The notes under the pieces: generated by a model
What the model was told of the DNA's origin: nothing
The model's input: the letters and a program-made list of their open reading frames with translations, nothing else
Database searches by the model: none
Translations under genes and position numbers: made by a program
Part shown: positions 13,314 to 13,406 of the stretch, piece after piece
How positions within the stretch are numbered: the stretch's first letter is position 1
How the letters are laid out: each line of letters begins with the position of its first letter
Origin: Escherichia coli
Lineage (GTDB): Bacteria > Pseudomonadota > Gammaproteobacteria > Enterobacterales > Enterobacteriaceae
Assembly (NCBI RefSeq): GCF_003334355.1
Contig: NZ_QOWP01000006.1
Length of the DNA stretch: 64,000 bases
Direction: 5' to 3' (one strand)

Positions 13314-13355
13314 AGCGCAATAACCTTACGTTGTTGTTATAAGTACAGAGGTCAT

Positions 13356-13372
13356 AACTGGTATGACCTCTT
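13356..13372 (-). promoter_or_regulatory. candidate FadR operator upstream of fadM
   Basis: AACTGGTATGACCTCTT resembles FadR consensus (A-CTGGTC-GAC-TGTT); embedded in 10-bp perfect inverted repeat AGAGGTCATA/TATGACCTCT (13347-13371); 35-60 bp upstream of fadM ATG. Confidence 0.45.
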
Positions 13373-13406
13373 CAGTCTGGCAAAAAATTGCCACTATGCA
13401 AATTAA

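Follow-up and report, generated by a model that had tools for sequence, protein, structure and literature searches.

The fadM-ybaV Spacer and Its Inverted Repeat

The stretch analyzed here, called the window, consists of 64,000 nucleotides of Escherichia coli DNA (contig NZ_QOWP01000006.1 of assembly GCF_003334355.1), and the element under study is a short inverted repeat in front of fadM, in which an operator of the repressor FadR overlaps a sequence that appears to be maintained as an RNA stem-loop. Based on the RefSeq annotation of an identical E. coli genome, fadM occupies 12915..13313 on the minus strand, and its upstream neighbor on the same strand, ybaV, which encodes a ComEA-like helix-hairpin-helix protein, occupies 13407..13778 and ends with a stop codon at 13407-13409. 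The spacer of 93 bp between the two genes holds the palindrome, which is located 34 nt 5′ of the fadM ATG and 35 nt 3′ of the ybaV stop. The two genes share the minus strand, so that the element is at once 5′ of fadM and a short distance 3′ of ybaV; this position just past the stop of a same-strand gene was absent from the first-pass annotation, an earlier note on this DNA. The segment 12700-14000 is 100% identical to E. coli PSS-12 and was found in 5425 of the 5426 complete E. coli genomes.

The palindrome (13347-13371) reads AGAGGTCATA-ACTGG-TATGACCTCT. Its arms, 13347-13356 (AGAGGTCATA) and 13362-13371 (TATGACCTCT), have a length of 10 nt each, are 100% complementary and stand 5 nt apart, so the perfect 10-bp inverted repeat that the first-pass annotation had reported upstream of fadM was confirmed both by a repeat finder and by direct reading. 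Perfect inverted repeats with arms of at least 10 bp and loops of 3-10 nt were found six times in the window, compared with a mean of about 0.6 hits per window in first-order Markov simulations, suggesting that this class of repeats is not random. Of 5385 complete E. coli genomes, 4884 share the 47-mer spanning the palindrome without any change, and both of the variants sampled carry the same single A to G change in the fadM-proximal arm (TATGACCTC to TATGGCCTC); the perfect palindrome is common in E. coli, not universal.

A scan of species-representative genomes yielded 80 Enterobacteriaceae loci with a FadM identity of 84-100%, and 10 extra loci from K. pneumoniae, other Klebsiella and Raoultella contigs, Cronobacter and Scandinavium were added by exact-protein look-up. 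The locus comparison covers the Enterobacteriaceae, the FadM protein searches having returned relatives of at least 82% identity, and Serratia, Yersinia and Erwinia lie outside this sample. The covariation counts of the stem given below refer to a 48-row alignment of distinct sequences. In the loci for which gene calls were returned, ybaV is located 5′ of fadM, and in the 80-species alignment the fadM Shine-Dalgarno sequence AAGG (13324..13327, minus strand) is conserved 10 nt 5′ of the ATG.

The FadR Operator of fadM

A weight matrix for FadR was constructed from the seven sites printed as gel-shift probes in PMC4259882 (two from fadL, two from fadD, and one each from fadBA, fabA and fabB), with fadM excluded. 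The 17-mer AACTGGTATGACCTCTT (13356..13372, plus strand) scored 18.8 bits with this matrix, the best value among the roughly 128,000 positions of the two window strands. Scores of at least 18.8 bits were reached in only 2.5% of the simulated windows, and the value is higher than all the leave-one-out scores of the training sites (6.8-17.6 bits). A FadR box of at least 9.9 bits, mostly between 15 and 19 bits, is present in 78 of the 80 Enterobacteriaceae species. The box lies 43-59 nt 5′ of the fadM ATG and starts 2 nt past a conserved extended -10-like element, with its stronger half-site, CTGGT, in the loop of the hairpin and its weaker half-site, GACCTCTT, in the promoter-proximal arm.

Published work places fadM under FadR. 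The repressor acts directly on the gene, and long-chain fatty acids induce it (review PMC9329746); a fadM promoter probe was shifted by wild-type FadR, not by the W60G mutant (PMC4259882, citing Feng & Cronan 2009), and a fadM-lacZ fusion was 2.5-fold higher in a fadR mutant (PMC4259882). The FadR sites of most fad promoters overlap +1 (review PMC9329746). Since 13356-13372 is the lone strong candidate in the 93-bp spacer, it is close to certain, judging from the matrix and these secondary citations, that it represents the published FadR operator of fadM. The first-pass annotation had described a FadR-like operator here, named fadM as a member of the fad regulon, taken the site to be probably the known one and proposed scoring it with a FadR weight matrix; the operator is borne out by the top score in the window and the regulon membership by the two sources named above, and the identity with the known site is almost certain from the matrix rank together with the literature on binding to the fadM promoter.

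In comparison with the other operators of the fad regulon (fadBA, fadL, fadD, fadE, fadH and fadIJ), whose consensus is aaCTGGTCnGACC(T/A)Gtt, the 17-bp box of fadM matches, and it is likewise located in the promoter region of a beta-oxidation accessory gene, probably overlapping +1. The difference lies next to the box, where fadM adds an inverted second copy of the weaker half-site at a distance of 9 bp, which by the matrix is not a FadR site in E. coli. It should be mentioned that fadM has been accepted in the FadR regulon since 2009, and the operator in itself is nothing new. The runner-up match of the FadR matrix in the window, GACTGGTTCGACTTCTA (45903-45919, plus strand, 14.7 bits), falls inside the tsx coding sequence and is probably due to chance.

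Symmetry of the Palindrome and Symmetry of the Operator

The first-pass annotation had regarded the palindrome as more symmetric than typical FadR sites, and the notion of an unusually symmetric FadR site is not supported by the analysis. The FadR box has its dyad at 13364, 5 bp away from the center of the palindrome at 13359. Each arm copies the weaker half-site (GACCTCTT, or AAGAGGTC on the other strand), and only one of them is correctly spaced from CTGGT. A second FadR site over the other arm was rejected for E. coli, where the mirror register gives 2.1 bits. Changes from GACC to GGCC have arisen repeatedly in the other arm; the base affected corresponds to FadR position 11, where six of the seven published sites have A. 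A sense TGGTnnnACC core is present in species whose loop has 7 nt, but the full matrix gives less than 8 bits (less than 5 bits where checked), and this candidate was also rejected. The substitutions in the other arm are strand-specific, with G·U pairs on one strand only, and they point to an RNA stem rather than to protein-DNA symmetry, as detailed below.

Conservation and Covariation of the Stem

In the sense of fadM and ybaV, the palindrome (13347..13371, minus strand) is predicted to fold into a stem-loop with the 5′ arm at 13371..13362, the loop CCAGU at 13361..13357 and the 3′ arm at 13356..13347. This 3′ arm is the fadM-proximal arm (TATGACCTCT on the minus strand, 13347..13356) and is outside the FadR box except for the shared base 13356. 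The predicted folding of the stem is -14.1 kcal/mol (z -3.8). The conservation of both arms in other enterics, which had been suggested as a check on the operator, was found in 91 of 91 orthologous loci, with loops of 4-8 nt. RNAalifold, which was not told of the stem, returned the same one as an 8-bp consensus. When all 10 pairs are considered, 97.5% of the cells are in standard pairs, compared with 35-59% when the partner is slid by 1-3 columns; double-sided changes occur in three pairs, and the observed covariation score was reached by none of the 500 shuffles. A scan of 13150-13550 against Rfam assigned no family and gave one chance-level match, sR33 (E = 4.7), away from the stem.

The pairing was found to differ between the strands. 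For the eight core pairs, the fadM sense gives 383 paired cells out of 384, including 36 G·U, whereas the antisense gives 347 out of 384, none of which is G·U. The free arm alters often, nearly always by A to G or C to T on the fadM-sense strand, giving G·U in the sense RNA. The fadM-proximal arm shows A to G at two positions (about 8 and about 13 events) and C to T at two, and T to C is seen only where the partner has changed to G. By parsimony, about 38 substitution events took place at internal stem positions, of which one breaks a pair and one is a transversion; the number of independent events is approximate, having been counted on a neighbor-joining tree of the fadM coding sequence (387 nt). 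No uncompensated T to C or G to A was found at the internal stem positions, and the uncompensated changes are distributed as 23 at four A positions and 0 at four T positions. Counted by site and not by event, all of the six variable sites are wobble-compatible. Transitions make up 46% of the changes at the fadM 4-fold sites on the same strand and in the spacer flanks, and A to G plus C to T account for 51% of the transitions at the fadM 4-fold sites, so mutation bias does not yield the pattern of the stem.

The compensatory changes are located at the operator-arm positions that FadR leaves free, namely box positions 8 and 9 only (13363 and 13364). A-U has become G-C in Pluralibacter, Scandinavium and Entomohabitans, and U-A has become C-G in the Klebsiella clade. 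The informative covariation is all within the inner six pairs, which are those contained in an RNA starting at 13367/13368. As far as the comparison of sequences can tell, these observations are best explained by selection on pairing of the fadM-sense RNA and not by protein symmetry, because there is no reason for a strand asymmetry of substitutions in a double-stranded protein site.

A further line of evidence comes from the Klebsiella clade. In the K. pneumoniae-like loci, Raoultella, K. indica and a related metagenome contig, the canonical FadR box is degraded, and the best FadR match lies in the opposite orientation over the other arm (AAGTGGTGTGACCTCTT with 10.8 bits and ATCTGGTGTGACCTCTT with 14.7 bits). 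The switched box was observed in the Klebsiella and Raoultella loci L081, L082, L084, L087, L079 and L036, about 54-70 nt 5′ of fadM. The arm that is FadR-free in this clade drifts to GAGGTTGCA, GAGGTCGCA and GAGGTTACA (for example, GAGGUUGCA versus UGUGACCUC), and all the changes of this drift leave either G·U or compensated pairs when read in the fadM sense. The palindrome of Raoultella terrigena reaches perfect arms of 12 bp. Judged from these alignments, whichever arm is FadR-free appears to evolve by RNA rules. Since both arms carry the weaker half-site, the operator would be able to switch arms with the stem kept, as in the Klebsiella clade, and the switch represents a small, neat case of binding-site turnover within a fixed scaffold.

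Alternatively, the constraint might act at the DNA level only, with the whole palindrome serving as a protein site. Such a site could be a FadR operator of extended or dual type, with both GACCTCTT arms in use, or the target of a second symmetric regulator such as PdhR. We consider this improbable. Both arms do copy the weaker half-site around one strong half-site in the loop, and the sense-orientation box of the Klebsiella clade reaches 10.8-14.7 bits. The TGGTATGACC core of the FadR box (13356-13372) resembles the PdhR box. PdhR, a GntR regulator of the FadR subfamily, has been reported to bind the fadM promoter weakly, and fadM mRNA is lower in a pdhR mutant (PMC7660256). However, such a site would not predict strand-asymmetric substitutions, and the change from GACC to GGCC took place about 13 times in the free arm, at the position where six of the seven published FadR sites have A. 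The low score of the mirror register in E. coli and the variation of the loop between 4 and 8 nt, which alters the spacing of the half-sites, are also difficult to reconcile with it.

It is still less probable, to the point of being very unlikely, that the arm is functionless, its likeness to the other arm being due to chance or to template-switch correction of the quasi-palindrome at replication. Template switching at quasi-palindromes occurs in E. coli and can yield changes that look compensatory, but it would give perfect complements and not 36 G·U cells across many lineages. It would not avoid transversions either, which make up 1 of the 38 events in the stem against about 54% of the changes in the flanks and the 4-fold sites, and none of the 91 loci has lost the stem, even as the spacer beside it diverges and gains insertions.

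Very little probability is likewise given to a constraint on the translation of a leader peptide, in which the fadM-proximal arm would contain the start codon of a small upstream open reading frame (ORF), MTSVLITTT in K-12 (13355..13326, minus strand). This ORF has nine codons and its K-12 stop lies inside the fadM Shine-Dalgarno region; an ATG, GTG or TTG is found at this place in 86 of the 91 loci, the sole pair-breaking change (A to T) gives TTG, and the other arm contains GAGG, which resembles a Shine-Dalgarno sequence. Nevertheless, the length, frame and end of the ORF are not conserved, ranging from 5 to more than 30 codons and ending before fadM, overlapping it or fusing with it in frame, and on this ground a conserved coding unit was rejected. 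Five loci have GCG instead, compensated in the other arm, and the Shine-Dalgarno-like sequence and the start codon would both be buried in the stem. The equivalent ATG of several Enterobacter species shares its reading frame with fadM, with no intervening stop.

Promoter-Like Block and Predicted Start of fadM

A block of conserved sequence was observed between the ybaV stop and the stem. It contains a candidate extended -10 element, TGcCAGACT (13374..13382, minus strand), with the TG at 13382-13381 and the predicted hexamer at 13379..13374, and a candidate -35 element, TTGCAT (13396..13401, minus strand), which is found as TTGCnn with a fixed 16-nt spacer to the -10 in 90 of the 91 orthologues. 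The pattern TGC-[C/T]A-nnn-T is present in 91 of 91 loci with variable middle bases (GAC, GGA, GAA, TGC and others), the -35 element follows TTGCAy, and the first 10 nt of the 16-nt spacer are variable. The distance from the end of the -10 element to the stem is 3 nt in 86 loci and 4 nt in 5. The built-in sigma-70 scan made no call at the 13374-13401 block; the conservation signature, in which none of the 91 loci departs from the TG, A(-11) and T(-7), leads us to infer an extended -10 promoter. By the geometry of this promoter, the fadM transcript would start at a G at 13367..13368 (minus strand), 6-7 nt past the -10 element and inside the 5′ arm, and the FadR box would extend from about -5 to +12. 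A start at 13367/13368 would leave a stem of 6-7 bp exactly at the 5′ end of the RNA, and an RNA folded from 13368 is predicted to form a 5′-terminal hairpin of 7 bp with -8.1 kcal/mol.

Two other candidates in this region were rejected. The GG-to-GC spacing of a sigma-54 promoter, TGGCA-N-TTGCC (13378-13393), falls short by one base, and other species do not conserve the left half of this candidate. Nor is the left half conserved in a small GGCAA/TTGCC hairpin 5′ of the stem, which shows no covariation and whose conserved part fits the promoter.

Insertions of about 120-170 bp are located between the stem and fadM in three Citrobacter (L010, L012 and L014) and three Kluyvera (L064, L067 and L069) species. 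In all six, the promoter-like block, the FadR box and the stem remain as one intact unit 5′ of the insert, as would be expected of a promoter-proximal module followed by an insert within the leader. In Kluyvera, the inserted DNA resembles an ERIC element (GTGAATCCCGATGAGCTTAC...); in the Citrobacter locus L014 it includes a terminator-like hairpin, AAAAGCCTGTGGGCCAGGCTTTT, which would separate fadM from the operator module. A smaller length difference is found within Escherichia, where a 12-bp segment, CTTATAA[C/T]AGTT, directly past the stem at 13342/13343 (minus strand) is absent from the window and from K-12 and present in other Escherichia (L001, L003-L005, L093 and L094). It resembles a tandem duplication of the TTATAA region, one allele of which reads TATAAT, and the indel alters the length of the fadM leader.

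A Possible Hairpin at the 3′ End of ybaV

The main rival to a stem in the fadM leader is a hairpin at the 3′ end of ybaV, which would mark or protect this end by terminating transcription weakly or with the help of a factor, or by blocking 3′ exonucleases, with the FadR box merely overlapping it. We regard this as unlikely, though clearly more plausible than the DNA-level constraint discussed above. The stem begins 35 nt past the ybaV stop on the same strand, and selection on the sense-strand RNA fits a ybaV 3′ end equally well. All of the 9-10 pairs are present only in transcripts that enter from upstream, which would explain the invariant outer pairs, and the insertions in the six Citrobacter and Kluyvera species fall 3′ of the stem, so that it stays beside ybaV.

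The likeness to intrinsic terminators consists of a 9-10 bp stem soon after a stop codon and, in Cronobacter, a run of T. In this genus the stem is followed by TGTTTTTTT, a canonical terminator tail; directly past the stem, the two Cronobacter loci (L085 and L086) read TGTTTTTTTATAT, with seven T, which is unique to these two loci. The Cronobacter element looks like a canonical intrinsic terminator between ybaV and fadM. By contrast, the 8 nt past the stem hold only 2-4 T in 86 of the 91 loci, E. coli included, and these lack a U-tract. The first-pass annotation had taken the palindrome for an operator and not a terminator, and the view that it is not a canonical intrinsic terminator stands, as no T-tract follows the stem on either strand and a terminator scan made no call there on either strand. 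Among the entries listed in the Term-seq tables of Adams et al. 2021, no 3′ end falls at MG1655 464340-464399, the corresponding positions; this is weak evidence, since ybaV is poorly expressed in laboratory cultures and the tables may be incomplete. A further difference from terminators, and a point against a hairpin that belongs to ybaV, is the promoter-like block between the stop and the stem, which is conserved at a fixed distance of 3-4 nt to the stem.

Proposed Mechanism

Taken together, we assign a probability of roughly 0.6 to the reading that a FadR operator lies over +1 and that transcription of the same DNA provides the fadM leader with a 5′-terminal stem-loop. In the absence of long-chain acyl-CoA, a FadR dimer on 13356-13372 would block RNA polymerase, and acyl-CoA would free FadR so that fadM is transcribed. 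The transcript of 13356-13372 and of the next 9-10 nt in the fadM direction would then fold into the stem-loop, of which the 5′ RNA arm would be the transcribed operator half and the 3′ arm the extra arm that completes the palindrome. 5′-terminal hairpins shield E. coli mRNAs from 5′-end-dependent decay, and by analogy the most likely role of the stem would be that of a stabilizing 5′-terminal hairpin on the fadM leader. The wider proposal, that these 25 bp combine the FadR operator in the DNA with a selected fadM 5′ stem-loop which sets stability or translation, and in which the operator can switch arms while the stem is kept, is put forward more tentatively; if true, a repressor site and an RNA structure would be evolving together.

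Several points weigh against the stem at the 5′ end of the fadM leader. A start at 13367/13368 places three outer pairs outside the fadM mRNA, yet hardly any variation is seen in the outer portion of the 3′ arm (CCTC), a fact for which a 5′ hairpin does not account. The event counts are approximate, with most of the G·U evidence coming from two often-changed positions, and the FadR matrix was built from seven sites only. Moreover, TATAAC (13341..13336), downstream of the stem, is an alternative -10-like element; with a promoter there, the stem would be untranscribed from the fadM promoter and the FadR box would lie at about -34. TATAAC, however, lacks the conserved final T, and its distance to the operator shifts by 12 to about 170 bp among species in which the operator is intact.

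With regard to known systems, stabilizing 5′-terminal stem-loops of the type in the ompA 5′ untranslated region were reportedly described by Emory, Bouvet and Belasco in 1992. The fadM element resembles them in having a stable hairpin predicted within 1-2 nt of the 5′ end and a pairing conserved across genera, and differs in that its 5′ arm doubles as a repressor site in the DNA and that the fadM start is a predicted one. The lac operator lacO1 (+1 to +21) is a transcribed palindromic operator that gives a hairpin in the mRNA leader. The fadM operator is similarly located 3′ of the -10 element and copied into the 5′ leader, where symmetry permits a hairpin, but its hairpin axis is 5 bp off the operator dyad, and one whole arm lies outside the operator and shows evolution of the RNA type. 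This offset axis, together with the arm outside the operator, suggests that the fadM hairpin is not a by-product of operator symmetry.

The stem is an ordinary type of element in an instructive overlap with a repressor site, and to our knowledge an RNA stem in the fadM-direction transcript has not been described before. The modest new point is that the symmetry does not come from FadR binding and that one arm behaves like RNA across about 90 enterobacterial genomes. If confirmed, it would provide a clean natural case of one short sequence under joint DNA-protein and RNA-structure constraint and a caution against taking extended operator palindromes as protein symmetry, and the stem might help to explain the high basal expression of fadM noted in the literature.

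Other Observations in the Window

The five other perfect repeats with arms of at least 10 bp and short loops are located at 1732-1757, 30916-30939, 34680-34705, 46593-46619 and 56757-56784. They resemble terminator or REP hairpins, and several have runs of A/T on both sides, like bidirectional terminators. Beyond fadM and ybaV, the nearby genes are ppiD (13929-15800, minus strand) and queC (12168-12863, plus strand). Adams et al. 2021 give, in a table that seems to contrast growth conditions, a 3′ end antisense to fadM at MG1655 464707 (minus strand), which corresponds to about position 13008 (plus strand) of the window and is on the queC strand, suggesting that queC transcripts run into fadM in antisense.

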